A stretch of 64,000 nt of DNA from Cyanidioschyzon merolae (lineage: Eukaryota). Location: the NCBI GenBank assembly GCA_000091205.1, contig AP006491.2; one strand, given 5' to 3'. Both the position numbers and the translations under genes were made by a program. This document shows positions 2 through 64,000 of this stretch, in pieces (positions within the stretch are counted from its first letter, which is position 1; every line of letters starts with the position of its first letter). Under the pieces are notes generated by a model. The model searched no databases. It was not told the DNA's origin and saw only the letters and a list, made by a program, of their open reading frames with translations.

Positions 2-667
2 TGCCAGGTGCTCGTGGAGCGCAAACCCCTCCCTGATCTGGTTGCTTCTATTCGAGATCAGCGATATCGCCTGCAGAAAGCGCGGATGCGGACATCAGGT
101 TTCAGACGCCTCGTGTACCTTATCGAGGGCACTGCTCGAGCGGAAAGCGCGGGTGCCACCGCTGAACACGAGCGATTATGGCGCACGATCGAGAAAGCAG
201 CACTGCATACCAAAGTGCGAGACGGCTTTCATATCGTCCGGGTTCCGAATGCCGTCGTCACTGCCCACTGGTACCAGCAGATGACGCGACACCTTCAGCA
301 GCGACTCGATGCTGGCGATGCATCAGTTTTGGTGAGGGCGTCCGCTTGTCCGGACGCTCCAGTAGCGCCGCTCACGCTGGACCAGTGGCGATACACCATG
401 CAACAACGGGAACAAGTGGTCTCTCTGCAGGCGATGCTGTGTCGACAATTGCAGGCTTTACCCGGTATACGAGAGCGGATCGCGCAGGAGGTCCTCCGTT
501 GCACAGGAGCGACCTGTGCGCACGAGCTTTACGACTGGTTCAAGCTGCATGCCCGGCACCAAGACGGGCCCGCGAAACTCGTCCAGGCATCCAGAAGCGA
601 TGGTAACCGTGGGTCGCGTCCCGTGCCCGCGACAGTGGCAGCGCTACTCTGGCAGCTGTTCACGTGA
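2..667 (+). CDS. C-terminal part of a MUS81-like ERCC4 (XPF/MUS81 family) structure-specific endonuclease; the 5' end lies outside the window
   Basis: ORF 8..667 opens with VERKPLPDLVASIRDQRYRLQKARMRTSGFRRLVYLIEG. This matches the ERCC4 nuclease motif ERKxxxDLxxSIxDxRxxxQKxRLxxSG...YLIE found in MUS81 proteins. The frame stays open back to base 2, so the gene continues upstream of the window. Confidence 0.55.
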   Translation, partial: CQVLVERKPLPDLVASIRDQRYRLQKARMRTSGFRRLVYLIEGTARAESAGATAEHERLWRTIEKAALHTKVRDGFHIVRVPNAVVTAHWYQQMTRHLQQRLDAGDASVLVRASACPDAPVAPLTLDQWRYTMQQREQVVSLQAMLCRQLQALPGIRERIAQEVLRCTGATCAHELYDWFKLHARHQDGPAKLVQASRSDGNRGSRPVPATVAALLWQLFT

Positions 668-1752: not shown

Positions 1753-4700
1753 AGCGCCTTGTCGGTAACGCTACGTTCTTGTGTGAAAATAACCTCTCTC
1801 CTGGAAAACGCTGTACTCGTTGGAAAACCCGGGGTCTCGAGTCACAGACTCGACTGAAGGCCAAGAGACACACTGGCACAAAAAAACGTGTCTTCGTTAC
1901 GCCTGGTCACGTACACGACCGCAGCGGTTCAAGGCGCCCGTGCGAAATGATCCCAGCGGCGCTACACCCCGTAGCGTCCCTGATGCGACAGCAGCAACCA
2001 CAGAAACACACACCTTGGACTCAAGAGCTCACAATGAACAAGTACGCAGGTCGAAAGTCCACGATACCACAGTCTGGCAACGAGACAGCACACACAAGCG
2101 GCAGCGCGAACAAAACGCACACGCTGTCCCTAGAGCTCGGCAGCGCCGGTTACAATTTTTTTTAATTTCATAAAGCGTTGACGAAGGCCGGCATTTCCCG
2201 ATTGACTGCTGGGGCGCTTGATACCAGCGTGCGGAGCAGCATTCATGATTCCACGTCCGACTTCTAAGCTCCATAAGCCATACCGTGTCGTGGGTATACT
2301 GGTTGCTTCGTATATTCTATCGTTTGCTGAGTGCGTGTCCTGATCATCCGCGACACCGCCTATAGCGCCGGTGCGGGCGTAGCACGGCGACAAAACGGCG
2401 TTGCCGTACCTCGGAGGGCGTCTGCTCGAGACGGTAGACAGGTACGCTAGCGCAGCCAGTTGCCCGCCTTTTCTGGCCGGCAGACTGCAGTAGGTTTCAG
2501 CTTGTGCTTGCATACTTCGAGCCTGAGAAGCTGTCCGACAAATCTAGATGGCGGCAGCTCCTTGGGTCCCGTCTTCAGCGCGGCAAAACTCCTGATATAG
2601 ATAGCAGCGTTAAAGTCTCATTTCACAAACTCCATGCGTTTATTGCCGCTGCTCGAGCTGACCAATGGAAGGAGGCATCGGACTCGTGCCCGCTGTGCCA
2701 CTTGGTTCGCTGTCAGCAACTCGTACTTTTCTGTGGCCGAAGGTCTCCGCTGTCTTCTCTCCGTATCGACCCTCTGGCGTGTACATCTGTGCTGATTCCT
2801 TAGATTTTACTTGCTTCATATGAACGCACTTTTTTATGCTCTTAGGTGAAGACCTTCCCCCGGCGAGAGGGACTTGCGGAAGAAAGAAGGCATATGTCCA
2901 AACGTCAGCGTGTGCTAGAAGCCGCAGCGATTCTGTCTGAAGAGCGATCATTACGTTTCAGGACTGAAAACGCTCTTTCGATGGAGTTGAGCCACGGAGA
3001 GTACGAAGGAATGAAAAGCAGCTCTACTCCCGGATAGAATCAGCGAAAAGCTCGAACGCGAAGGGCAATGGTGAAATGCTATGTTGTCCAGTAGAAGGAC
3101 GTCGCCAGACCTGCGGGGAAAAGTCTTCGATCATTCGACGAAAGGGTTGCTGTTGTATGAGCGTTCCCTACGAGCGAAACTCAGGCCGTCAAATGAATCC
3201 ATTCTAGCTAGAACAGATGATGATGTCCTCGTTCTCCTCGAGTTCTACCGAACATTGCACGGGCTCCGTCTCCGCAAATACCCATCTACGCTTCAACCGC
3301 TTCATCCGAAGCAAGTCTCATCGACTGAAACAAACCGACATGACTCCGCTTCATGCTCATCGCGACGTTCCAGCAACGCTATCCTTGCGATTTCGGTGCA
3401 AGATGGTCGCGCGTGAACTACGACTCTTTTTGCGACTATATCCCAGTGTTTTCAGGACGACACGAACAAGCCGTTCAGAAACAGAGACGCCCGTGGTGGC
3501 TGTTACCGTCGCTTTTGCTTTCCATTACATGATCAACGGCTCGTTTTCTATCATTGGCCGAAAGCAGTCTTTCACAGTACCAGTTTCTGGCGCGTGACGC
3601 GTATACTTCTTTCTTTCAGTTTCCCCAACCATCTGAGTGCTGTGGTACATCTGACCTGAATGCGGAATGCAGTCCTCGTTCCACTATTCAGTAAAGAATC
3701 TTTCCTAAAGAAAGTTCGTCGTCAATCTACAATATACATTGCGTAGTGTTTCCGATCTCCTGCAACACACCACGAAAAGCATTCAATTAAATGCAGCGAA
3801 GTTTGAACAATGTTGAGTGGAAACACTATGAACAGGTGGATCTCCTCTGGTCTGGATGCAGCAAGTCGCAGATATGTCGCAGGATGTAACATTTGGTTTC
3901 AGGGAACTGTTATCGAGCTTTGGGACGATTCCAGATCTCCTGAACGCTCTCGATTTGGCATTGTTCTGAATTGTCCATTGCTGCAGCGTATGGACGTGGA
4001 GCCGTTCTCTGAGGAATTCCGATAAAACGCTTTCGAGTGCGTCTCAATTCGACCTAGGCATGAACAGCCGGGGCGTTGGAAGCGCCTCGGAAACGTCAGG
4101 CTGTGTGCAGCATATTAGCATTTGCTTGGGCAGGAAGCAAGGATTCCGCCTCGCATCACCTACATCGAAAGTGATCAAAGCATACAAGCAACGCATTCGC
4201 CAGCTCAAATTCCAAAGTGCCAGCGAATGGACGGCCCAGTCGCGCTGGCGAACCTTGTGCGCAAGCCTCATGAGGAATCCCCAAACCTCTGGCGTATCCT
4301 GGCATCTGCACTTACCGATTCGCTTCACGAACATTCACCCATGCGCCCGCAAGCAAACGCATTCCTGGCAGCAATGCTTTGTATGCGGATATTTCGTTAA
4401 TATCGCAGCTTACAGGTTATCTTTCGCTGCAGCGACAGAACAGGGCATGCCGTGCAGCTCCGGCTGTCGCAAGCTTATTTGCAACCCTTCTCCTGAATCA
4501 CGTATAGGCGACTGCGAACCGGCAACTACAGATTGCAGCTTCCGAGACGCGAACCAGCTTCTAATCGATGCCGGCGACGTTGCTCGCTATCGCACGCTGG
4601 CGGCAGCGCGTACCAGTCTCCCGTCGACGCATGGGGAACGAGCATACGCAATCCAAATGCTCGTGTTTCTGTGCGTCATTTCCAAAATATATAGCTTTGT

Positions 4701-5540
4701 CTCTATCATTTGTCTGCCGATCCATGCACGCCAGTGCTGCTCGCATCGCACCGTTTTCTCGACTGCACCATCAATCGATCATTCGAGCCGAATTCCCTGC
4801 ATGCACTGCGATTGCCGTTCGCAACCAGGGAAGCGCGAAGACACCTCCATGCCTTTCGGGGGCGCATGCAGCTCGCATAAGACCCCGATCACTCGTCACG
4901 TTGCGTAGAACGCATGAACCCAGCGAATGCGCCATTGTTCAGCGCCATTTGAACCCCCCGCTGCGTCGCCGAAAGCGCCATCCACGCGATACCCGCCCAG
5001 CAACAGCGCAGCAGCGTCGACTCGAGACACGCCTCCGGTTGCCGTGTGATCGACGAGCTCCCGCAGCGCGTGCAGATCACCGGCGAAGGCAACGAAGAAG
5101 CCGCAAGGGGCATTGCGCTCCGGATTCGAGCTGCCAACGGACGCGCGCGCCCAGCGATGCGATGCGACGCCCTGGGGATCACGACGGCACGCATCGCCTT
5201 CGATTTTCTCCCAAACGCGTTCATTTCTACCACAAGTTTCGCGGGCTCCAACGGCGAAATCCATTTTTGGTGGGGACACGTGTCCGTCGTGATGGTGCGT
5301 TCCTGGCCAATGATATATCGAACGAAAACAGTGCTTGAGACCTTTCCTCTGTATTCTTCTGCGGCGCGGCTGTTATGGATGGACACCGTCGGCTACGTGG
5401 CATCACGTGGTGACGCGAACTTGTGAAGTACACCAAAATTTTGCATTTGATTGGCGTTGTCATCGTTCGGAAAGAAGACGTGACATATCCCATTACGATT
5501 TAGAGTATACTACGCAAGTATTCGACGAGAAGGATAATAC

Positions 5541-6410: not shown

Positions 6411-8284
6411 GTTACGTAGCCGACGAGCGTACATTGAAGTACATCAGGAGTGCCGGGTTGAGCCCAGATGGAGGCAGAGGGGTACGAGGCCAAGATTGGC
6501 CTTTCGTATGGAGAGAACGAATTAGAGAAATTGGAATCGGGGTAGAATTTCAGGCGATGGAGCTGGTCAATGAATACATTACTTCTCTGAAACGGAAAGA
6601 ATGTCTCTCGGTCGCAGTGCCGAGGCGAGAACGTGTGACGAAAAGCACCAAAGTGAACAACCAGCAGCGAGGGAGACGTGTGCTCCAGTCTCTGGCTTTC
6701 TGCACAGCACTCATTTGCGCCTTTCTGGATTTCCATTATAGTCTTTCACCTTAATTGTATTCCATCATCAGGTGCGTATACTCAAATGCCTTTTCGCATT
6801 TCATAGCCAGAAGTGTTCGGATTGCGTTCATTTTGAAAAAATAAAGAGCCCGATGGAAAGTTACGGACACGAAAGTCGAGGATCCTACAGGGCCATCCTC
6901 GCCAGGTTCCGCTAAAAACCCGAAAAGAATGTTGTTTTTGCCTGTGAACGAGGGAAGAAGAGCAAGTGACAAAGAAGACGAAGATGGAGATGTTGATGGG
7001 TGATAGGCGGGACCAGGTGTTCGCGAGACTCGGCGATAACGAGACTGGAATCGCACTGAGGGCTCGAGCTTTGGCAATTCCTGCATTGATGAGTTCAGCC
7101 ACGGGCAATAAACACAAGGAATTTGTGAATTGAGACTTCAACGCCACCATCATTAGCAGACGCTCTACAGTGCTGAAGACGACGAGACCCGAGGAGCTAC
7201 GGCGATCCGAATACGTGTGGTATCCTCCCAGGCTCGTAGTGAACTGGTAGAAACGGATGCCGATACCAGACTGCCGGTCAAAAATGCAAGGAGTCGTCGG
7301 TGCATGGGTAGATCTATTTATTCACCGTTCTTGTAGAACGTTTTCTGTTTTATTGAGAGCAACGATTATCTTCTGCTGCTGCATCCTCAGCACTTTTCTG
7401 CAGTCACGACAGCAGGCAAGTTTCGGCAGCCGAAAGCGCCCCTGCTGCCGCGTTCTCGATCCGCCATGAAAAAGCGTACGCAGATCATGCGATCCGGACG
7501 AGTGTGCATCTCCGGATGCTTGACTCTAGGTATGCCTATGTATTTGTATGAGTATGTGTGCCAAGAGCTGCAGCGATCTGATCACGAGAGTTACCGCTCC
7601 TCGAAGCTGCATGCGGTACAGCGACGGCTGGTCAAGGCGACAAGCAACCTGCGTACCAGAGGCATACGCTCGTGTACCAGCAGAGAAATTGCGGATGCAG
7701 CCGGGTGTGTACGTTTCAAGCGTTCGTGCACGCTACCAGTGAGCTTGTCGCTTTTGCACCCGACTGAATACAATTGGGGTAACGGACTTACAGGCCTCAT
7801 ACGGGCACTCCAAGTCGCAGATGCCAGCGCACAGGGCCTGCTGGTCGCCGGCCCGTCACACCGCTCGCTGCCTGGAATCGCTTCGTACGCCTTTGCACAC
7901 AGGCAGTGTCGAGGCGAGATCTCCACTAAATTCATGCACTCTACATGGAAACATCAAATGATGCTGCCTGTATGGATCCGAATATCATTTGATGCATCCA
8001 GACATGCTGTCGAATGCGGTGGAAGCACGACGTGTCCGATTTATCTTCCTGGAATGTGCACCAGTGCAGCAAGTACCCGAACGCTTGTTATACGGACGCA
8101 CGCCCTCGCCCGTTTCGTGGCGATGATTCCGTTTCCAGTGGCTAGCAGCGTCATGAGACTGGTATCCTCCCCGAGCGCCGGTTTGCTGAGGTCACTACAT
8201 CCCTTCCGTTCTGCCTGCATCCAGGCAAAACGCGGGCGCACAGCGCCCCCATTTCCACATCCGATACCGACACATCCATCTGGA

Positions 8285-17044: not shown

Positions 17045-19071
17045 ATTGCCAGGTCTCAGCTCGCGCTCGCTGCGTGTCTTCGTGCCGCGCACACACCACA
17101 ACACCAACACGCAGTCAACGTCGCGTGTGGCAGGCATCGCTCGTCGACGCCTACCGTCACGACGCCGCCGGCGATGCGTCGCCGACGCCGCACGCATCGC
17201 GTTTTTGGTGCGTGCATGCGTGCGTGCTGGACGCCCGGCGCTGCGGCATCGAGCATCGTCGACGGTGCAGCGATCGGGGCAGCGAGATGCGGTGCGCGCA
17301 GACCTGGACATCATCGCCTCGGATGCGTCGCGAACGTTCGATTTTTTTCATAGACAAGACGTTTACTTGTGCCAGCTTTCTCCGATTATGCGCATTTATG
17401 TTTTCTTACCTCTTTTGTGTGTTATTTTTTGTGCGCGGTGAGGTATCCATCAAACGTCCTACCTCCAAGTTACATTACCTATACTGATTCTCGGATATTC
17501 TGGTCGTTTCATACGTTCTATCGGGTGCGCTTAGTACCTAACCTAATCATACGCCTTTGGAACTTAACCGCTGGAGCAGATAGTTCATAGAGTTAGGAGG
17601 GCTTTTCCATACCACAGAGGGCGTCGGTTCGAGGCGTGGTTCACCCGACGTAGAACTGGGATTCGTCGTCAGTGTGTGCTCGGACAGTCTGCGGATGCAG
17701 GCTTGCCTTCGCTGCACGACACGCTGGAGAAACTTCACTGTTAGGATATATCGTGGGGGCCGCCTCTCTCCTTCGTGATCATGCATGGAATGCGTTGTTG
17801 TCGGTTGGCAATGCGGGTTTGTGCTCGACACTCATACAGAAGGTAGGCGCAGAAAGCGCACTAAACCCGTGTGCGCATCCGATTCGCTGGACCATCCGCC
17901 TAGAAGGTAGCATGTGAGTTTGTTCGCCACTAGTGAGCGCTGAGGCTCTGTTAGCGGACCATCAGTTGCCAGTGCTGCACTCAAAGTGAGTGTCCGGCCG
18001 TCGACTATCACGGTGATGCCCAGCTGCTGCTGTCCTTCAAGGAGATCGCTGCGCTCCTGCTTTCAGCGCGGCCACTGTAACAGTAAATATGTCAGCGTCT
18101 CGGGGATCTCGTCTCGACAGCAGGGACAGTGTGATTCCCAGTGCGATTCCAGTGCTCCTATCCGGCTTAGAGCCGGTGCTGCTAGTCAGAAACCACCAAC
18201 GTGGATTTTGGCGAGCCACTGGGTACCGCGAGCAAGTCCCGGGAATTCCAGCGCCTCCCACCAGTACTTGCATGTGTATGCTAGGTTGTAGTTCCGGTAT
18301 AGAGTCAAGCCGGCGTTACGGGCGCGACTGGTTCCGTGTCTACGTTCCCATATTGGTGTTCGGACCGTTCGCTTGAGGCGTCTGAAGTCTTCTACATTCC
18401 TGGGGAACGATTGGAGCGGACAGCCTGCTTCTGGGCGTCGCGCTGGTCCGAGTGGACTCCGAGTACGTCGCTTCGTGCTGCTGCAAGCATTAGGTCTGTC
18501 TGCGCAGCTTACTGGCTCCCAGCATGATTATGTAGTCCGAACCCGTATCCAATGAACCACAACTTGAGGCGACGCCCTCACTGGCATGGCAAAGCCGTTC
18601 TGTCTCCGTGCCGCATCTGCTCCAGGGGTGTAAGCGCGATTGCGAATGCTCAAGGAAGGTTACGTGCACAGTGGAATGCACGAAATAACCAGTACATCCG
18701 AAAGGAAGTACAAGTAATGGAACCTGAAGGTAGGGTCCAGCAGCATGATGGGCGCTTTCCCGAATGTCAATACCGATCTATCGCGCAATCTGGCCTCCAT
18801 GGTCCATAGAAGCGCTTTGGCATCGGCGGGAGAACCGGGCGTCGCCCCGCGCTGCGCTCCATGGAACAATGCTCAAATCACGAATAAATTGTACTTTATT
18901 AAATCTGTATGTACTATGATGTACAAAATAGCATTCCAGGAATCCCGAGATCACACACGCGCTCGAGACGTGAACTGTCTCGTCACTCTCGGCTACGGCT
19001 TCATCTTCCTCGTATTTCTTCGCCATTAGATACGAGTGCGGTAAGATTCTGGGCTGAAGTTTTCAATATTA

Positions 19072-24181: not shown

Positions 24182-24880
24182 CTAGGGCTCCATTGGTGCG
24201 CCCGCATCAGGTAGAATGCGATGACGCACGAGCGCTCTGTAATGCTCGGGACGAAAGCGTCTAATGTACTCCGCTAATTTTCCCCGCACGATTGTCTCTG
24301 TCGATGCAATGCCTATCTCATCCGCGAATGACTGAATCAGCGTTTTCGCTGACGCAACGGCCTCCTGCATGATTGGACTGGTTCCGCTAAGCAATCGATC
24401 GTTATCGCGATATAGAACCAGTACTTCAATTTCGCCAACGGTGTAACCGTAATCCGTCCGATCCAGATCGATGTTCAAGGTCTGCCCGCGATAAACGACT
24501 TGTAAAGTTTCGCGCTCTGTCACGATCCGGGCAAACGGTGCTATGCGGCCTTCCCGAAGAGCCGTGTCCGGGCTCCACCCGAGCGCAGCCTCCACGTCTG
24601 CGAACTCGTCCAACTCTCGGTAAGTGTCCAGCGTAGCTGTGCGTGGCGTTTTTCCCCAAGGTATTTTGAGCTGCCACTGCAGCTCACGTTGCCGTAGCCA
24701 CCAGTCGCGCAGTGTTAGCGCCCAGGCATCTGGTACGTCAAAATAGGTATCCGTAAAGCAGGCAGTACGCAGCCGACGTTTCTCTGACACGATCGACGTC
24801 GACTCGAGCCTCTCCAGCAACCGTTGGGTCAGTTCTGGAGACAGCACAAACTTGCGCTCTACTTCAATGCTAGCCGTCAT
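24182..24880 (-). CDS. CYTH-domain protein (thiamine-triphosphatase / CyaB-like triphosphate tunnel metalloenzyme)
   Basis: Starts MTASIEVERKFVLSPELTQRLLE, which carries the N-terminal ExExK CYTH signature, followed by acidic beta-strand motifs (TDTYFDVPD...GYTVGEIEVLV). I chose the start at the ATG at 24880; the upstream part of the ORF is low-complexity. Confidence 0.55.
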   Translation of the reverse strand: MTASIEVERKFVLSPELTQRLLERLESTSIVSEKRRLRTACFTDTYFDVPDAWALTLRDWWLRQRELQWQLKIPWGKTPRTATLDTYRELDEFADVEAALGWSPDTALREGRIAPFARIVTERETLQVVYRGQTLNIDLDRTDYGYTVGEIEVLVLYRDNDRLLSGTSPIMQEAVASAKTLIQSFADEIGIASTETIVRGKLAEYIRRFRPEHYRALVRHRILPDAGAPMEP

Positions 24881-25126
24881 GGAGCAGGCGAGCGGACCAA
24901 CTCCAACCGGCCTGCGCAGTTTCGCGTACCCCCAGCAGACACTTCGGAAACGCCCGACAAACAGCCGCTCCTGGCGTCCCGGGTGCGAAACGCCTCGCGC
25001 ACACAGACGCGTTCGTGCTGCACACCCGTGTCGACTTGAGCTCGCGGGCGCAACGAAGCCAGCCAGACTCGGTCTCGAATCAGCAAAGAGGTACCCCTCG
25101 CCAAACGCCATTCTTAAGTCGAACGA

Positions 25127-25860
25127 CGCCAGCGGTGTACAGTAGTGGCGACCGGGCCGCCCTAGAAGAAATGTCTCCGACTGATGTGCAGAAGCCTGCC
25201 CGTCTTTTTGGACCGGCCACCTACTACTGCTTCAAACTTTTTCTCATATAGTTTAACTTTGAGCGGTTTTCCAACCAAATTCTCTATCGTCGACCCGAGA
25301 GGTCTTTCCTCTCTCACCGCACATTTCCTTATATTGATTGCGGCGTTAAAGTCTCGGTTCACAAACTCCATACGTTTCTTGCCATTGATTGTACTTACTA
25401 ACGCAAGCAATCCTCGAACTTTCGCTATCCTTTCCATTTGCTCTTCTGTCAGCGGTCCGTACTTTTTTTATATCCTCAGGTCCCCGCTGGCACTTTTCCA
25501 TCTCGACCCTCTGAAGTGTACAGCCCAGTTCATGGTGTGTATACAATGCTCGAAATCCATCTACCGGTATTATAACAAAACGCCGTGCGCACTCCTTATA
25601 CGTTCTCGTCGTGGGATCTGGTGTACACCCTTGTTGGGTCGTCCAGCGCCTTGCTTCGTACGCTACTACGAGCCTTTGACTTTCATCCTCCTTCAAGGCA
25701 CTCAACTCACTGAAAAAAAAATGCGAATGCCCGATACTCCCTACATTATAGATTCATGCGGAGATCAAACTGCCCGCCATCCGAGATTGCATGTACGGAT
25801 CTCAGCGCTCGCGTCGGAAGCATCGGCAGTGGACGAGCGCCTTGTTGTGCACTGCCTGTC
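25127..25860 (-). pseudogene. Inverted, frameshifted fragment of the TnpB/Fanzor-like nuclease 3' region (RuvC-III end) plus its ~160-bp 3' flank
   Basis: Minus-strand ORFs 25346..25705 and 25162..25437 together reproduce [53 protein letters not shown]...PEDIKK...[19 protein letters not shown] from the full copy at 29.5-30.0 kb. They sit in two different frames because of 1-bp indels, and amino-acid identity is about 80%. Homology to the reverse complement of 29480..30132 starts sharply at 25127. Confidence 0.75.
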
Positions 25861-25891
25861 CACTGGACACGCAAGGTACTTTCGTCGGAAC

Positions 25892-27904
25892 ATGGGCGTT
25901 GAGAATGCTTTAGGCGGTTTCATAGTAACGAATACCTTCAGCGGTAGCGGTGTACGTTTCGTCGTACGGAACCGGAGCCAGTGCAACTCGCTGGTGGTGC
26001 CTGGGTTCCGCGCGAGGCGGCGTACGCGCTGCGGAGCACTTGCTCGCGTACGGGGGACAGATTCGGCGCCAGAGGGTACCCCCGACGCCGAAGCGAGGCA
26101 CCGTCCCAAGCCTGGTGAGCGAGGGCTCTTCCCGCTCGTTGCACCGCGTGAGGATATCGGGCGCTATTTCGTTGGAGAGCGTCGGATTTTGGACGAACGC
26201 ACAGCGCGCTATCCGCTACGCTCGACGGTAGAGGAAGTGCTGGCGGGCATTACGGTGGCGATGGCGCTGCTGCCTGCGGCGGTGTCTTGCGCGTTGGCCA
26301 CGGGCGTGCCGCCGCTCGCTGGAATCGTCTCGACTGGTCTCCTGTGTGCGATAACTGCCGCACTGGGAGGACGCCCTGGCATGATCTCAGGAACATCTGC
26401 AGCGCTCATTATTCTGCAAGCGCCTCTCTATCAACAGTACGGCGCAGCAGCGGTCGCTGCCGCCGTGGTGCTCAGCGGTATACTCCAGCTTTTCTTCGGG
26501 ATCTATCGTTTGGGAAAGTTTGTGCGGCTGATATCGTACCCTACCTTTCTGGGATTCATCAGCGGCATCGCCATCTTGACGGCGACAAGTCAGGTCTATG
26601 CGTTTCAGCTTCCAGCGGGAACCGGGCTGAGCCCGGGCGCACCCTGGCTCCAGGGTAACATGTTGCGTGCAGCGTTGATCGTCGCAGCGCTCGCCGCTGG
26701 AGTCGCCCATGTATGGCCCTTGATCATTCAGCGACTACAGCGCCGGCGCCCCGATAGTACCCATCGGTGGCAGCACCGCCTCGCTGAGCTGTTGCGTTGG
26801 CTCCCAAGCCCACTAGCGGGCATCCTCGTGGCATCCATTTATGCGGAGGTGACGCAAGCGCCTGTGCGGCGGCTTGGCGACTTTTTGCGCGACACGCTGG
26901 CACAGTCAGGGGCCATTGGCGTATCCTGGGCAGCCCTGCCGTCAACACCGCTGGCATGGATGGCCATTCTGAGCACCGCGCTTGGTCTCGCATTCATCGG
27001 TCTTTTGGAATCTCTGTTAACCATGACTTTGGTAGACGAAGTCACGGAATCGAGGGGTAGCACGCGTCGGGAGTGTCTAGCGCTTGGGGCAGGGAATATC
27101 GCCGCGGGCTTATTCGGTGGCGTGGGCGGCTGCGGCCTCCTGGGCCAGTCGCTCCTGAACACGAAATCAGGGGGACGCGGGCGTCTCTCTGGACTGACTG
27201 CGGCGCTGTGTCTTCTCGTGTTGGCGAGAAATCCGAGCGGACTGATGATTCGGATTCCCGTCCCAGCCATTGCAAGCCTTATGGTGCTGGTGGCGCTGGG
27301 CTCGTTCGAATGGGCATCGCTGCGCTTGTTTCGTGCCATACCTCTCGCTGATTCGCTGACCATTGTGAGCGTTGCCCTGATGACTGTAGCAACGCGCAAC
27401 GTCGCCCTGGCGGTCCTGTTTGGTGTGGTATTCTCGGCGCTGGTCTTTGCCTATAAAGCGTCGCGACGCATTACCGCCCAGAGCTTTATTTCGGAGGACG
27501 AGCAAACGCGCGGATGGCGGGGATACCGGATTGACGGTCCGCTGTTCTTTGGCACGGCGGAGCGCTTCAGTCGTCTGTTCGACCCAGCACGGGATCGTGC
27601 CGAAGGCCATGAGCACGTGATCATCGACTTCTCTGGTAGCCGCATCTGGGACGCGACAGCGCTAGAGGCGCTAGACTCCCTAGCCCGTCAGTATAGGAGC
27701 TATGGTATTCGGCTGCATCTGTGGGGTCTGTCTCGAGATAGCGCACGTCTGCTGCGCGAGGCACGCGCCTACATCGACGAGAGTGTCACGAACGAGAAAG
27801 CGCTCTACTTGTACGAGCGGGTTGTAGCCGACTATCCCACAAACGATAGTCTAGAGGTTGAGTACGAGCTTTTCGCGAAAAGAGAATCGGGGAATGCAGC
27901 GTAA
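25892..27904 (+). CDS. SulP/SLC26-family sulfate (anion) permease with C-terminal STAS domain
   Basis: VEEVLAGITVAMALLPAAVSCALATGVPPLAGIVSTGLLCAITAALGGRPGMISGTSAALIIL is the SulP N-terminal signature. About 10 further TM segments follow, then a STAS-like end (YRIDGPLFFGTAERF...HVIIDFSGSRIWDATALEAL). The stop is TAA. I chose the start at the ATG at 25892, because the 5' 236 codons of the long ORF are antisense to the Fanzor-like fragment. Confidence 0.8.
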   Translation: MGVENALGGFIVTNTFSGSGVRFVVRNRSQCNSLVVPGFRARRRTRCGALARVRGTDSAPEGTPDAEARHRPKPGERGLFPLVAPREDIGRYFVGERRILDERTARYPLRSTVEEVLAGITVAMALLPAAVSCALATGVPPLAGIVSTGLLCAITAALGGRPGMISGTSAALIILQAPLYQQYGAAAVAAAVVLSGILQLFFGIYRLGKFVRLISYPTFLGFISGIAILTATSQVYAFQLPAGTGLSPGAPWLQGNMLRAALIVAALAAGVAHVWPLIIQRLQRRRPDSTHRWQHRLAELLRWLPSPLAGILVASIYAEVTQAPVRRLGDFLRDTLAQSGAIGVSWAALPSTPLAWMAILSTALGLAFIGLLESLLTMTLVDEVTESRGSTRRECLALGAGNIAAGLFGGVGGCGLLGQSLLNTKSGGRGRLSGLTAALCLLVLARNPSGLMIRIPVPAIASLMVLVALGSFEWASLRLFRAIPLADSLTIVSVALMTVATRNVALAVLFGVVFSALVFAYKASRRITAQSFISEDEQTRGWRGYRIDGPLFFGTAERFSRLFDPARDRAEGHEHVIIDFSGSRIWDATALEALDSLARQYRSYGIRLHLWGLSRDSARLLREARAYIDESVTNEKALYLYERVVADYPTNDSLEVEYELFAKRESGNAA

Positions 27905-28399
27905 AGACAACGGGCATCGCTAGAGGGCATCGCAGAGGAGCAACGGACCCCCGCAGGGCGCGAGCGGGTCGTGCGCTCGCTCCTGTATCATTTTCGGTGC
28001 CGTTTGGTTACATCCGCTTACGCAGATCGATAAGTCGAAACAGACAGCGGTGATTGCCAAGCATCGCGTCGTTCCTGTGCGCCCGAACGGAGATGTTGTC
28101 AGCGTTCCGCTCCGCAACGTTCCATCCATTGCACCGAAGTGCGCCCCGTCGACAACACATTCCAGCGTGGGATCAGGCGCACGAAGTTTCCCTGGCACAG
28201 CAGCAGTGACGGACATCAAAACAGTCGAGGTTTCGGAAGCGTTTTCGACAGGACCTTGATTTGTCGCCTGATGCTTGGCACAGGGGAAACGCGGAGGGGA
28301 AATGAGCGGGTTCATGCCCTCCACGAGAATCACGCCGAGTACCGCCCTGAGGGTACTCGATTCAGGGGTGATTCGGATCTTTAAACCTACGGGACGATC

Positions 28400-30132
28400 A
28401 AGTACCATACGGACCTGAAGAACCATTTGACGATGAACCTCGAACGCTTCATGAAACGCTCCGTCTATGCACTCTACCCGGGCATCGCTCGCAAAGGAAT
28501 ATGGGCGATTATCAATGGCATCACGAAGGATTGCCAGAATGAACAGGAGATCGAATTCTTCGACAAGAAGACATCACGCAGGAGAAAGAATGAAGCTCCT
28601 GTAATCCATTGGGTTATACAAGAGCATCGTGCCGTACTGGGGCTGGCGAACCCAACAGAAAAGTTATCAGAGATGAAAAAAAGATAAGAAAAGATACGAT
28701 CGCCTCATCCTGCGCTATTTCGTGTTCCTGGACCAAGGACTGGAACGCGAGGCATAGATGAAGCTGAGTGAGGAGAAAAATGATGCGTCGGAGAAACGAA
28801 AGGCTTTCCTAATGGGGAAGCACCCTAACGTCGTTCCGTTGAACAACATCGAGTCACACTGTGTGACTATCGACTCCAGAGTCCTTCAAGGCATCATGAA
28901 GGAGATCAGTCCCGAGTTCGATGTTAGCAGGGAGGAGTTCTCCGGTGAAAATCGGGAGATGTACGGGAAGAACATCTTCGATGTCAATCGTCTCAAAGTG
29001 AGCAAATAAAAGGTATTCGCTGGGATGATCGAAACCGATGGAGTAGCCATGTGTGTACAGTATCGGAGGTTGAAGGTGGATCGTCCCATCGCGCCTTGGG
29101 CTTCGCCCGTGACGAAGCATGAAGATAAGATGGAGATGGGCCCTGAAACGTGTAATCCCCAGGATAACGACCTTGTCGTTGGCGCGGACCCCGGGAACAC
29201 GAATATCGTAACCATCGCAGTACCCAAGCGTGCGGAAGATGGCATTGACGGTAACTTGCCTCAGAAAGACATGCGTCTGTTGAGATTCTCGAGAGCGAGA
29301 TACCATCGAGAATCGGGAATCATGAATGCAAGCAAGAAAATCGAGACGTAGAATGCAGGAATGAAAGAGCACCTGGAAGCTATGACCAAGTTGACTAGCC
29401 GAGGAGCGGACTCGGAAGCTTTTCGGAAATTCATGGAAGTTCGTGTTGCTCACTGGAAGGCGCTGTGGAAAGAGTATACAAAGTCCCGGTAGGCTTGTCT
29501 GCGTATGAGTCTATTCCGTGGGATGCAGCGGGCGTTCGCAAACTTTTTCAATGGGTTGAGCGCCTTGAAGGAGGACGCAAGTCAGAGGCTCCTGGTAGCA
29601 CACGGAGCAGGGCGCTGGAAGACCCGAAAAGGATGTACACCAGCTCCAACGACAAGAACGTACATGGAGTGCGCAAGGCGTTTCGTTACGATACCGGTAG
29701 ATGAGTTTCGAGCGTCCTATACGTACCATGAACTGGGGTGTACGCTCCAGAGAGTCGAGATAGAAGAGTGCCAGCGGAGCCCTGAAGATATAAAAAAGTA
29801 CGGACGGCTGGCGGAAGAGCAAATGGAAAGGAGGGCGAATGTTCGAGGACTACTTGCATCAGTAAGAACAACCAATGGCAAGAAACGTATGGATTTTGTG
29901 AACCGAGACTTTAACGCAGCCGTCAATATAAGGAGATGTGCGGTGATGGAAAGAAGACCTCCAGGATGAACAAGAGTGAACTTTGTTGGACAATCATCTA
30001 AAGTGGAACTATATGAGAAAAAGTTGAAACGAGTAGTAGGTGGCCGGTCGAAAAACCTGGGAGGCGTCTGCACATCAGTTGGGGACGTCTTGTCTAGGGC
30101 GGGTTTCCCGCCACTACTGTGCACCGCTGGCG
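28400..30132 (+). mobile_element. TnpB/Fanzor-like (OMEGA-type) element: nuclease gene plus a conserved 3' terminal non-coding region; the left boundary is approximate
   Basis: Sampled stretches here are 53-57% GC, about 4 points below the window average, with A-rich Lys codons. The nuclease ORFs run 28427..29969. The conserved 3' flank 29970..30132 is also present, inverted, at 25127..25290, and homology breaks sharply at 30132. Confidence 0.65.
28427..29969 (+). CDS. TnpB/Fanzor-like RuvC-fold nuclease (putative RNA-guided endonuclease); the reading frame is interrupted, so it is possibly a pseudogene
   Basis: RuvC-I-like motif [17 protein letters not shown] in ORF 29025..29351. C-terminal region [57 protein letters not shown]...[23 protein letters not shown], with the TnpB/Fanzor VDEyRTS-like and RuvC-III DxNAAxNI signatures. 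28758..29969 is a single frame broken by in-frame TAA (29007) and TAG (29349, 29490). The N-terminal Lys-rich ORF 28427..28687 is in another frame. Confidence 0.6.
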
Positions 30133-30222
30133 GCAGCGTTTTTCTTTGAAAGGCGTGCGGTGTGCGCAGCATATCGACATAGTTCGTTATCGTGCACCAT
30201 AGTCTCTGTTCACTGCACCGGC

Positions 30223-47859: not shown

Positions 47860-48300
47860 TCGCCGTTCTCGGGCCTCTGAACATCGCATCGAACAGGATT
47901 GGATGCTTTATATGCTTTTGTCGGCGGGTAAAGTAATGGATCATATAGATGATCTTCGGTCGGCGTCCATGAAGCCACACGTATGTCGGCGACAGTTTCA
48001 GTCGTCCAGAGGCCAGCAGCGTGCAGTCGTCAATGTCTTGCATGCAATGAATAAGAAAACGACCGAAAAGTCGTATCGTTTCCTGGTAGCATATGGCGCT
48101 GGACGTGCCGTAGCGCGCAAGGGCTGCACTCCTGCTCCGCCCGGACCAGAGCATTTAAGGTGTGTAGGAAAGGATTCTTTACGATTCCAACCGAACCGCT
48201 CAGGATGACATGTGCGCATCACGAGCACGAGTACAAGCAGAGACTCGTAAAGAGAAAGCAGATGAAACAGCGCGGGGTGCCTTTTGTGGTATACGGTGCG
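47860..48300 (+). pseudogene. Third, heavily degraded fragment of the TnpB/Fanzor-like nuclease gene
   Basis: ORF 47840..48208 contains [50 protein letters not shown]. This parallels [49 protein letters not shown] in the 29.5-kb copy. ORF 48160.. continues frameshifted with FTIPTEP.RMTCAHHEHEY, matching [20 protein letters not shown]. Confidence 0.45.
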
Positions 48301-49060
48301 CTCACCGAACGTCAGATGGAAGGCCAGTCACAGCGGAGAGGCCTGCCCTGCAGCGATTCCGCCAGCAACCGTGCGCGCACGCATCTACCGCTTCGAGATT
48401 TGAACGCCCCGAGCAGCGTTGGGAAACGCCTTGGAATTCCGAAGTATCCAGCTGCTCTACCTCAAGCGAACTTTCCATGGCATCGTTTAGGACTCCATGC
48501 AGGCATCGTACTGAATCACCGAAGACTTTCGATGGAAACAACTCAGTCGCAAGTGGGGACAGGGCTGGATGCTCGCGTGCAGCTCGGCACTCGAATGCCA
48601 CAATCCAGCAATGCATCGAGGCTGGAGTGCTGCACGCAAGGATCTACACAGGGAACAATGGCCCGGTGCACTTGATCAGACATCATCGTGTCCGACAATT
48701 CGATACGTTTGCGTATGTGCGTCGACCGTTGCCGTAAATGGATTATATACGCGTCTTGATGACAAGCTGACGCATGTTGTCCAGATGCAGGTCGAGATGC
48801 CTGCTCGCGAATCCCGATATGTCTCTACCGTTGACGCCGTGGCAAGCGCGCCTCCGCAGCGATGCACGGATGCTGCGTGTGCGTGGCACGCATCCGTCAC
48901 GTGACATCATCCGTGTATCGCGGTGCGTGGCAGCACTCTGTGGACACGACGACGCGGGATGCACATGCATCCCGGCGTTTGCTTCGGATGTCTATAGAGC
49001 GTCCGTTTTTTTCGTCTTTTATCGATAGGTGAGTCTGGATCGGATGCTGAACCTGGGCCT

Positions 49061-63237: not shown

Positions 63238-64000
63238 CCCGTGAGCATTGAGTACGAGTATCCCACCTGAATCCCGAAACGAAACAAGGCGGACGCGGGA
63301 TGGGAAGGTTCCACGGGAGGCGGGGCGCTCGTCAGGAGCGTCTCACGCAGGGCACGGCACAGCACAAGCGCTCGTGCATGAACAGCACCGCCCGCGTCTT
63401 CTTGGTAGTACGAGGTCTCGCGTACCTGAGGCGCACGCGAGTCCACTGATTCGCGCACCTCGTCACTGGTGGATCCCGAGCAAACGCCTGCGTCAGGAAT
63501 CAGCGGTACATGCGATAAACGTCCACCGAGGAGCGACTCGGCACCCGAGAACCAGCCTCAAAACCACGTTTCCCGAATCGTCGTGCAGCGCTGGCATGCA
63601 TGCAGCCATGCGTCGTAGTCTTGTGGAGCAGAAACTGACGACAGGATCCCGCCCTGCATCGGGTTGGCGCCCTCAGTTGTATGGCAGCGCTGTTCTGTTT
63701 CCGTGATGCATCGGCCCCAGCGTTTGAGGCGCCATTACTGGTGCCCAAAGCAGGCACTCGGCGCACATTAGAGCGAACAAAACGACCAGTGCATCCGAAA
63801 GGAAGTACAAGTAACGGAACTTGGAGGTAGATGCGTCACGATGGACACATTCTCCAAATCCAGCATCCGTCCGGCAGTCTGGGATCCGTGGTCAATTACA
63901 GACGTTTTGTCATCGAAGTAAATCAGCGCACGCACACGCACGCTCGTATCCTGCAGCGCATGGACCGGGGCGCTGTGTGCCGGGTGTCGCCGCCAATGCG

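Follow-up and report, generated by a model that had tools for sequence, protein, structure and literature searches.

Right end of a decayed Fanzor1 transposon in Cyanidioschyzon merolae: corrected boundaries and a candidate omegaRNA scaffold

Two relics of a Fanzor1 family

The window analysed here, a stretch of 64,000 nucleotides, belongs to the red alga Cyanidioschyzon merolae 10D, since four of its ORFs match proteins of this host exactly, including CMI060C, CMI062C and 4HPPD. As shown in Table 1, it carries two dead copies of a Fanzor1 family without TIRs, which lie in inverted orientation to one another. Copy 1 is 81% identical to another member of the family (locus L081, positions 2831-4788) over 1968 nt and has its end point in common with it, and both window copies are 84-86% identical to a 3'-end consensus that was built from 72 copies. 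The damage to copy 1 consists of four premature stops, one frameshift, one 1-nt deletion and the 5' truncation. The in-frame TAA and TAG codons and the terminal TGA had hinted at an alternative genetic code with reassigned stops; this was rejected because homologs carry Q, W and W at the three internal codons, which are point mutations instead. Both window copies are relics, that is, pseudogenes.

Table 1. Features of the two Fanzor1 copies in the window (positions are those of the whole stretch).
Feature	Position	Strand	Remarks
Copy 1	28206-30162	+	5'-truncated, decayed Fanzor1 (CMe-1A-like) element
Frameshift in copy 1	between 28687 and 28758	+	
In-frame stops in copy 1	TAA 29007, TAG 29349, TAG 29490	+	homologs have Q, W, W
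Catalytic RuvC motifs retained in the Fanzor1 remnant	29181-29921	+	GADPG 29181-29195, VDEFR 29697-29711, NRDFNAA 29901-29921
Premature TGA	29967-29969	+	read through in homologs and in the 72-copy consensus, which have PPEL/W/S-TRENF here
Decayed 3' end of the Fanzor1 ORF (last ~42 codons)	29970-30097	+	open in the consensus; coding-like variability
SL1	30098-30112	+	GGCGGG-TTT-CCCGCC, directly 3' of the stop codon
Linker, single-stranded	30113-30120	+	family consensus ACTACTGTA, running on into CAC
SL2	30121-30163	+	long imperfect terminal hairpin; 3' arm reaches the element end at ~30162
Flank, putative guide source	30164-30183	+	role assigned by analogy with SpuFz1
Copy 2	25099-25764	-	3' fragment of the same family, inverted orientation, also frameshifted
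Copy 2 SL1	25147-25161	-	counterpart of the copy 1 hairpin
Copy 2 SL2	25099-25134	-	fold

Judged by profile similarity, the gene is a TnpB-family nuclease and specifically a Fanzor1. The profile made from the family only had no significant match in the PDB (E 0.71), and it was broadened by adding library representatives before the match became significant. The broadened profile (P0002 and 51 relatives) matched PpFz1 (9cf0, E 2.7e-21), SpuFz1 (8gkh, E 3.2e-14) and GtFz1 (9cer, E 4.2e-9), which were its only matches in the PDB at E ≤ 1. The D, E and D columns of the RuvC motifs are invariant in an alignment of 52 proteins (A4), and all three residues are kept in copy 1. There are 140 close homologs, and Pfam places the family in DUF8286; the window protein itself had no match in Pfam. 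The Zn-ribbon/TNB domain (PF07282) was weak in P0002 (E 0.23) and was found at E ≤ 0.01 in 8 of the 52 relatives. An AlphaFold2 model from the shallow family alignment reached a pLDDT of 32 and was unusable.

The family matches CMe-1A, an identification that is based on shared properties and not on direct alignment with the Repbase consensus. CMe-1A was described in C. merolae with ~150 copies of ~80% identity to the consensus, a length of ~3 kb, no TIRs and a 5' part that is common to a separate repeat of ~620-635 bp, TE-N2_CMe (Bao and Jurka 2013, Mobile DNA 4:12, PMC3627910). Some of the genomic copies are reported there to be intact. The properties shared with our family are the host, the Fanzor1-type protein, the length of ~3 kb (here an element span of ~2.6-3.2 kb), copies of ~80% identity numbering in the hundreds, the lack of TIRs and a 5' module like TE-N2_CMe. 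No 3'-terminal hairpins, exact right end or RNA are described in the CMe-1A paper (PMC3627910). The 5' side of the family comprises several alternative modules, and similarity keeps extending upstream; no left end, TAM or TSD could be defined from the family copies compared. The element loci also contained no inverted end box, as the conserved 3' box was absent from them in reverse-complement form.

True ends of the reading frame and of the element

A previous sequence-only reading of this DNA had placed the nuclease stop directly before 29970 and had described the ~160 bp that follow as a non-coding tail. Both statements had to be revised. The TGA at 29967 is premature, and about 128 of the supposedly non-coding bases are decayed coding sequence, as the consensus frame is open to 30097. 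This frame is kept open in the 72-copy consensus and in many homologous proteins, where it ends with ...RPPELTRENFVGQPLKVELYEKKLEAVVGGRSKKTGRRLHVSWRRFV*. In copy 1 it is broken by the premature TGA and by the 1-nt deletion near 30052, and the copy 1 frame from 30059 reads GRRLHISWGRLV*. The ancestral stop is the TAG at 30095-30097, which abuts the SL1 hairpin. Variability in the tail is distributed over the three codon positions in a coding-like manner (0.113/0.076/0.143), and past the stop it is flat (0.25-0.27). The tail had further been said to be non-coding sequence conserved at the level of the coding part; equal conservation between the two window copies is uninformative on selection, because both copies are neutrally drifting pseudogenes.

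The retention of the tail in the inverted copy was confirmed, with positions 29498-30132 matching the reverse complement of 25127-25764 (81% identity over 638 nt, E 2e-171), and the stretch does contain the right end of the element. The end had been drawn at 30132 and 25127. However, when gaps are allowed, the alignment of copy 1 with copy 2 continues to 30156 and 25105, so that homology runs past both of these points, an outcome that the earlier reading had itself named as refuting its boundary, and the true end lies ~30 nt further out. In at least 30 other copies, similarity to copy 1 persists as far as 30151-30167, and family conservation drops to background at ~30160-30165. In the multi-copy alignment, the right end of the family falls at ~30162 in copy 1 and at ~25099 in copy 2, which the family consensus aligned down to 25102, and the element ends read ...GGTG(YG). 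The apparent edge at 30132 is an indel-rich patch inside the 5' arm of SL2. A sharp boundary with unrelated flanks does exist, past the family end and not at 30132; the flanks beyond it differ between insertions, and no motif was found in them.

These results bear directly on the scaffold as it was originally drawn, with ~160 nt of non-coding sequence at 29970-30132 and a guide from 30133. The ungapped comparison of the window copies does stop at 30132/25127, in favour of that version. Nevertheless, we consider it hardly credible, as the family consensus ORF extends to 30097, the homology reaches 30156/25105 between the window copies and ~30162 in other copies, and positions 30133-30162 belong to a conserved hairpin, of which they form the loop and the 3' arm, and not to a variable guide.

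Conserved hairpins on the sense strand

The genuine non-coding end of the element is a module of 65 nt (30098-30162) that consists of SL1, the linker ACTACTGTRCAC and the terminal SL2. The hairpin GGCGGG-TTT-CCCGCC is present as had been reported, and so is its counterpart in copy 2, which reads GGCGGC-CCG-GTCGCC on the sense strand, with one G-C pair changed to C-G and one G-U wobble. Its distance from the element end is ~50 nt and not ~20 nt as had been given. The description of the tail as structured and scaffold-like holds in that such a module lies between the stop and the family end, but the terminal SL2 of 15-20 bp had been overlooked. The outer 4 bp of SL1 (GGCG/CGCC) are near-invariant in 60 distinct copies, and about half of these copies lack pairing at the inner 2 bp. 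The linker (ACUACUGURCAC in RNA letters) has a column identity of ~0.92 despite being non-coding, and has a complement in the coding bases 30030-30043 as well. A long-range helix of 30030-30043 with 30108-30120 was set aside as no more than a lead, since it is conserved with almost no covariation and one of its arms is under coding constraint. Helices inside the ORF, including one at 30063-30089, were likewise set aside as leads, being conserved but essentially without compensatory change.

A covariance model of the module matched both window copies and had 83 matches in the family loci (85 matches in total). The match for copy 1 spans 30092-30164 (43.9 bits, E 1e-8), and the match for copy 2 spans 25094-25167 on the minus strand (65.1 bits, E 1e-13); a weak match at window positions 122-185 (E 0.23) was without blastn support and was dismissed. 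Although subfamilies A, B and C differ in sequence, all three retain the pairing of SL2, and some copies show matched changes in arm length. On the model-fitted alignment, 80% of the pair cells are paired compared to 34-56% when the partners are slid, 17 pairs have changed on both sides, and none of 500 shuffles reaches the observed values. On a MAFFT-only alignment of subfamily A only, 81.5% are paired compared to 29-59% when slid, and the covariation is within the range of the shuffles. Therefore, much of the support comes from the conserved hairpin and from the differences between subfamilies on the model-fitted alignment. When all subfamilies were aligned by MAFFT alone, SL2 did not line up from one subfamily to the next, and RNAalifold therefore recovered no more than the outer 4 bp of SL1. 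The module has no match in Rfam.

The stems contain 237 G-U and 48 A-C combinations, a ratio of ~5:1 that favours the sense strand. The sense strand is also the more stable one in 45 of 51 copies (mean 6.2 kcal/mol), and the mean folding z is -2.06 for sense and -1.09 for antisense. In well-kept copies z reaches -4.0 and -3.7, compared to -2.1 and -1.5 in the two window copies. The latter values are only modestly better than those of shuffles, hairpins of 6 bp are not uncommon in a GC-rich stretch of 64 kb and the covariation within subfamily A is not significant, all of which would suit fortuitous palindromes in a neutrally decaying repeat without any function. Such an origin is highly improbable for hairpins that recur at the same position in all 85 matches and in three divergent subfamilies, some with matched arm-length changes, and the excess of paired cells over the slid controls, the surplus of G-U over A-C and the z of about -4 in the best-kept copies speak against it as well.

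A candidate omegaRNA scaffold and its relatives

In active ancestors, the module at 30098-30162 was probably the template of the scaffold of a Fanzor1 guide RNA (omegaRNA). This is the best reading because the stop codon, the two stem-loops over ~65-70 nt and the variable flank reproduce the layout of SpuFz1 and PpFz1. The omegaRNA proposal of the earlier reading thus survives in part, since the arrangement matches Fanzor1 omegaRNAs (PMC10432273, PMC11423790), whereas its extent and end were wrong. RNA production, binding by Fanzor1 and guided cleavage are what we infer for these ancestors: a transcript crossing the gene's 3' end would continue into the flanking DNA, SL1 and SL2 would be bound by the nuclease, the guide would be formed by the first ~15-20 nt of the flank (30164 onward in copy 1), and the guide would direct cleavage of the element-free allele. 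In the known systems, SpuFz1 transcripts run 14-15 nt past the conserved region (PMC10432273), and the Fanzor1 omegaRNA consists of SL1 (7 bp), SL2 and the guide, with a scaffold of 75 nt in PpFz1 (PMC11423790). The SpuFz1 and PpFz1 omegaRNAs (Saito et al. 2023, PMC10432273; Xu et al. 2024, PMC11423790) belong to the same protein family as the gene studied here, and the likeness extends to the length of ~65-75 nt, an SL1 of 6-7 bp near the 5' end and an SL2 that adjoins the guide, followed by the variable flank. There are also differences. Spu-1 elements have TIRs and their omegaRNA spans the 3' IR, whereas the CMe-1A-like family is without TIRs, and SL2 has 15-20 bp in the C. merolae family compared to 4 bp in PpFz1.

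A structured module that begins at the stop codon on the sense strand would also be expected if the Fanzor1 mRNA had a common type of structured element in its 3' UTR, acting for instance in 3'-end formation, termination or stability without guide function. We regard this as very unlikely, since all characterised Fanzors place their guide RNA at this position (PMC10432273, PMC10530073), the module and the transposon end fall at exactly the same place in every subfamily, and the conservation of the linker and SL1 is far above the expectation for a UTR.

It is possible, though unlikely, that the terminal hairpins act chiefly in the DNA, as a cis signal for transposition in which a transposase supplied in trans recognises a single-stranded right-end hairpin, comparable to the right ends of IS200/IS605 elements and the 3' hairpins of Helitrons, with the RNA role secondary or absent. 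In IS200/IS605, the Y1 transposase TnpA recognises hairpins at both ends, and a single right-end hairpin is used by the transposase and the omegaRNA alike. The position of the hairpin at the extreme end of the element fits a DNA signal, and so does the strand asymmetry, as G-T-tolerant sense hairpins suit top-strand DNA as well as RNA. In addition, the family has neither TIRs nor resolved TSDs (PMC3627910), as in elements that move via single-stranded DNA. On the other hand, Fanzor1 is the sole gene seen in the element, with no HUH or Rep/helicase ORF and no second ORF seen; no matching left-end hairpin was identified, the left end itself being undefined; and the G-U pairs of the consensus stem cost a DNA hairpin more stability than an RNA hairpin.

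In ISDra2 (IS200/IS605), too, the TnpB guide-RNA template extends over, or borders on, the 3' end of its nuclease ORF and stops at the right end, TIRs and TSDs are lacking, and the right-end hairpin acts on the top strand. Unlike in ISDra2, neither TnpA nor a left-end hairpin was found in the C. merolae family. The bacterial TnpB omegaRNA overlaps the ORF extensively and has more stems and a pseudoknot. Some Fanzor1 genes are carried within Helitrons (PMC10530073, PMC3627910), and Helitron and Helitron2 elements are similar to our family in having a hairpin near the 3' terminus and no classical TIRs or TSDs. Unlike these elements, the family ends in ...GGTG(YG) and not in CTRR, lacks the Helitron2-type asymmetric inverted repeat and has no Rep/helicase gene, and its hairpin extends to the very end, whereas the Helitron hairpin lies 10-12 nt inside.

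The hairpin of 15-20 bp at the extreme 3' end and the lack of TIRs and of resolved TSDs could also have a combined meaning, in which CMe-1A moves via single-stranded DNA as IS200/IS605 or rolling-circle elements do and the hairpin is at once the signal for the transposase and the guide-proximal stem of an omegaRNA of ~65 nt. This combination appears quite unlikely to us; if true, it would be a eukaryotic survival of the dual-use right end of bacterial TnpA/TnpB elements.

That the guide RNA lies at the right end of Fanzor elements is a general principle that is already established. The present results revise the layout of a Fanzor1 family that was known but had been characterised poorly, with its true ORF end and its true right end, and provide a compact module of ~65 nt with two stem-loops as a concrete candidate for the omegaRNA scaffold of a red-alga Fanzor1. 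Since C. merolae is a genetically tractable organism with growth temperatures of ~42-45 °C, a reconstructed CMe-1A Fanzor1 with its short scaffold could be a testable, thermotolerant and compact editor. Ends that lack TIRs and carry a terminal hairpin also bear on the question of how Fanzor1 elements are mobilised without a recognisable transposase.

Coding sequence in the tail and the right end of the element

Copy 1 (28206-30162 (+)) is a 5'-truncated, decayed Fanzor1 element, and copy 2 (about 25099-25764 (-)) is an inverted 3' fragment of the same family. The inverted pair was confirmed: over 638 nt, 29498-30132 is 81% identical to 25127-25764 read as reverse complement (E 2e-171). The hairpin GGCGGG-TTT-CCCGCC is indeed present at 30098-30112. 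Read along the strand of the element, its copy 2 counterpart is GGCGGC-CCG-GTCGCC; relative to copy 1, one G-C pair is replaced by C-G and one pair is a G-U wobble.

The gene upstream of 29970-30132 is a pseudogene. The copy 1 frame from 28758 has in-frame stops at 29007 (TAA), 29349 (TAG) and 29490 (TAG), and a frameshift is located between 28687 and 28758; the copy 2 fragment is also frameshifted. Close homologs carry Q, W and W at the three stops, which are therefore point mutations, and a variant genetic code was rejected. The sequence-only reading took 29970-30132 as a non-coding tail, which did not hold. Homologous proteins read past the position of the copy 1 TGA (29967) as ...RPPELTRENFVGQPLKVELYEKKLEAVVGGRSKK.GRRLHVSWRRFV and a stop, and the consensus of 72 distinct copies has the same open frame, ending in a TAG that adjoins the hairpin. 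In copy 1 the tail peptide is legible as TRVNFVGQSSKVELYEKKLKRVVGGRSK and, after a 1-nt deletion near 30052, as GRRLHISWGRLV up to the TAG at 30095-30097. Column variability by codon position was 0.113/0.076/0.143 in the tail and 0.080/0.090/0.162 in the undisputed coding part, and was flat (0.25-0.27) after the stop codon. Taken together, the open frame and the codon-position variability show that the nuclease reading frame, now decayed, accounts for about 128 of the 163 bases. The equal conservation of coding part and tail between the window copies, also invoked in that reading, is uninformative on selection since both copies are pseudogenes.

The element end proposed at 30132/25127 was likewise not borne out, and this edge is an indel-rich patch that halts ungapped extension. 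A gapped alignment of the two window copies extends to 30156/25105, and the family consensus aligns as far as 30164 in copy 1 and 25102 in copy 2. In 80 loci with relatives, taken out of 313 confirmed stretches, many copies are still similar to copy 1 up to 30151-30167; locus L081 aligns with copy 1 over 1968 nt to a shared end at 30162/4788. Conservation in a 72-sequence alignment is kept to about 30160 and is at background level after it. The flanks past the right end are mutually unrelated, and no motif was found in them. At locus L078 (1658-1775) the flank directly after the right end contains part of that end in inverted orientation; GTCGGGCGTG and CACGCCCGAC pair perfectly, and CGTTCGAGCGGCGG comes next. 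The arrangement resembles a tail-to-tail insertion and hints that element ends may attract new insertions.

Fanzor1 family and genomic setting

A protein search gave 140 close homologs, all from a handful of JGI metagenomes and of Pfam class DUF8286. The family-only profile gave E 0.71 against SpuFz1, while the profile broadened with 51 representatives from an exhaustive library search matched the three solved Fanzor1 proteins, PpFz1 (E 2.7e-21), SpuFz1 (3.2e-14) and GtFz1 (4.2e-9), and gave no other match. In the alignment with these representatives, the D, E and D positions of RuvC do not vary. Homologs P0001-P0008 contain tandem ~20-aa repeats, (Q/K)(E/K)V(Q/E)DND(F/L)VVDAAKHE..., whose number varies and which lie after the N-terminal region and before the RuvC-I motif; they give protein lengths from about 580 to >750 aa and a coverage spike in the locus comparisons (loci about 3600-3900). 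Three further fragments are much more decayed than copies 1 and 2, which brings the family to at least five insertions in the 64-kb window; at about 2400, one copy keeps a hairpin, ACGGC-AAC-GCCGT, at the position of the hairpin after the stop codon.

CMe-1A is a Fanzor1 family of C. merolae described by Bao and Jurka (2013; PMC3627910), with about 150 copies of about 3 kb at about 80% identity to consensus, no TIRs, TSDs undetermined, class unknown, and a 5' 635 bp common to the repeat TE-N2_CMe (PMC3627910). The present family matches these properties: its span is about 2.6-3.2 kb, identity of the window copies to the 3' consensus is 84-86%, a search of the family loci for an inverted end box found none, and a repeat of about 620 bp on the 5' side is also found alone. 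Since this repeat, probably TE-N2_CMe, stands alone in the window and in the loci lies in both orientations next to the 5' side of Fanzor1 bodies, we suggest that it is an independent element inserting at, or targeted by, the Fanzor1 left side and not a fixed 5' part. One copy group (L008, L011, L013, L030, L064, L066 and L073) has a different 5' module at about 1800-2200 with a perfect 12-nt palindrome, GGACACGTGTCC; the family left end was not reached in the loci even 160 nt upstream of this module.

The window has the gene content of a gene-dense, intron-poor eukaryote; genes around the element include an RCC1-repeat protein, a SulP transporter and ABCE1, and four ORFs exactly match Cyanidioschyzon merolae 10D proteins, including CMI060C, CMI062C and 4-HPPD (810-kb record). 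The right ends of both copies face the 5' side of a neighbour, a CYTH gene for copy 2 and an RCC1-like gene for copy 1. The first ATG of the CYTH-domain ORF (24182-25111 (-)) lies at 25109-25111 (-), within the 3' arm of the copy 2 terminal hairpin; because this exact protein was not found in the protein collection, the annotated start is probably further downstream. The N-terminus of a 906-aa ORF (25184-27904 (+)) is an artefact, its first ~340 codons running antisense across copy 2 and intergenic DNA, and its SulP/STAS transporter domains begin only around 26230.

Features of the Fanzor1 family in the window and in related loci
Feature	Coordinates	Remarks
SL1, hairpin after the stop codon	30098-30112	GGCG(NN)-NNN-(NN)CGCC
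Linker		ACTACTGTRCAC; highly conserved
SL2, terminal hairpin	30121-30163	long, imperfect; conservation ends with its 3' arm (...GGTG)
RuvC D/E/D motifs kept in copy 1	29181-29195; 29697-29711; 29901-29921	
Decayed Fanzor1 fragments	2564-2785 (-); 7020-7190 (+); 48008-48420 (+)	30-47% amino-acid identity, with stops
About 620-bp repeat, probably TE-N2_CMe, alone in window	17458-17671; 18413-18826; 63666-63930; 2291-2433	
About 620-bp repeat, probably TE-N2_CMe, in loci	L081 1601-2248; L048 1623-2286	

Two hairpins at the right end

After the stop codon, 30098-30162 holds SL1, the linker and SL2 in this order. The outer four pairs of SL1 are almost invariant and the inner two are often broken. 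In subfamily A, SL2 is CACCGUUGGCGUCGUUCGA-CUU-UCGAACGGCGUUGAUGGUG, with 19 bp in L055 and L068; in subfamily B the inner stem (ACGUUUUUC-UUUU-GAAAGRCGU) and the 5' arm are both different and pairing is kept. Both arms are shortened to match in L065, and L021 has TCTA/TAGA instead of TCGA/TCGA. A covariance model built from 14 copies matched copy 2 at 25094-25167 (65 bits), copy 1 at 30092-30164 (44 bits) and 83 sites in the loci; a search of Rfam with this module gave no match. In the model-fitted alignment, which leans towards structure, standard pairs fill 80% of pair cells compared to 34-56% with slid partners, 17 of 25 pairs change on both sides, and no shuffle reaches the observed values. 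With subfamily A aligned by MAFFT alone, pairing was 81.5% (29-59% slid) and covariation lay inside the shuffle range. Because of this result and the bias of the fitted alignment, covariation support is moderate.

What stands firm is that the terminal hairpin persists in subfamilies of divergent sequence and that the two strands are asymmetric. In 45 of 51 distinct copies, folding is more stable on the sense than on the antisense strand (mean difference 6.2 kcal/mol; mean z -2.06 versus -1.09), and G-U pairs number 237 against 48 A-C mismatches. Folding z was -4.0 and -3.7 in well-kept copies and -2.1 and -1.5 in the decayed window copies. The main rival gives the terminal hairpin a DNA-level role in the movement of a TIR-less element, and such a role could coexist with one in RNA; G-T-tolerant sense-strand hairpins also suit single-stranded DNA and the family left end was not located in the loci, but no Rep, HUH or other second gene was found in the element, its end has no CTRR terminus, and no asymmetric inverted repeat was found.

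The linker and the SL1 3' arm can also pair with coding bases 30030-30043: over 13 bp, the conserved non-coding box CGCCACTACTGT (30108-30120) is complementary to GCAGTAGTAGGTGG, a coding segment that lies about 75 nt upstream of it. This helix competes with SL1 and may be either an alternative fold or a helix that spans a long range within an omegaRNA; it is only a lead, since almost no compensatory change was seen.

A candidate omegaRNA scaffold

Characterised Fanzors draw their guide RNA from sequence adjoining the right end, and its 3' guide is read off flanking DNA (PMC10530073). The SpuFz1 RNA is 88-90 nt with the last 14-15 nt variable (PMC10432273), and solved Fanzor1 omegaRNAs run from SL1 (7 bp) through SL2 to the guide, the PpFz1 scaffold being only 75 nt (PMC11423790). 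The CMe-1A-like right end shares this layout, with stop codon, SL1, linker, SL2 and then variable flank, in 65-68 nt, and on this arrangement and structure we therefore take 30098-30162 as the probable template of the omegaRNA scaffold, whose guide would start at about 30164 in copy 1. The initial observation is thus partly confirmed, and its interpretation as a right-end scaffold is partly supported with corrected coordinates. Both window copies are relics, and the element family and the principle of a guide RNA at the right end are already known. Its right end with two hairpins seems to be undescribed so far: of the papers in the searched library that name both Fanzor and Cyanidioschyzon, PMC3627910 is the one on the family, and it gives no account of this end.
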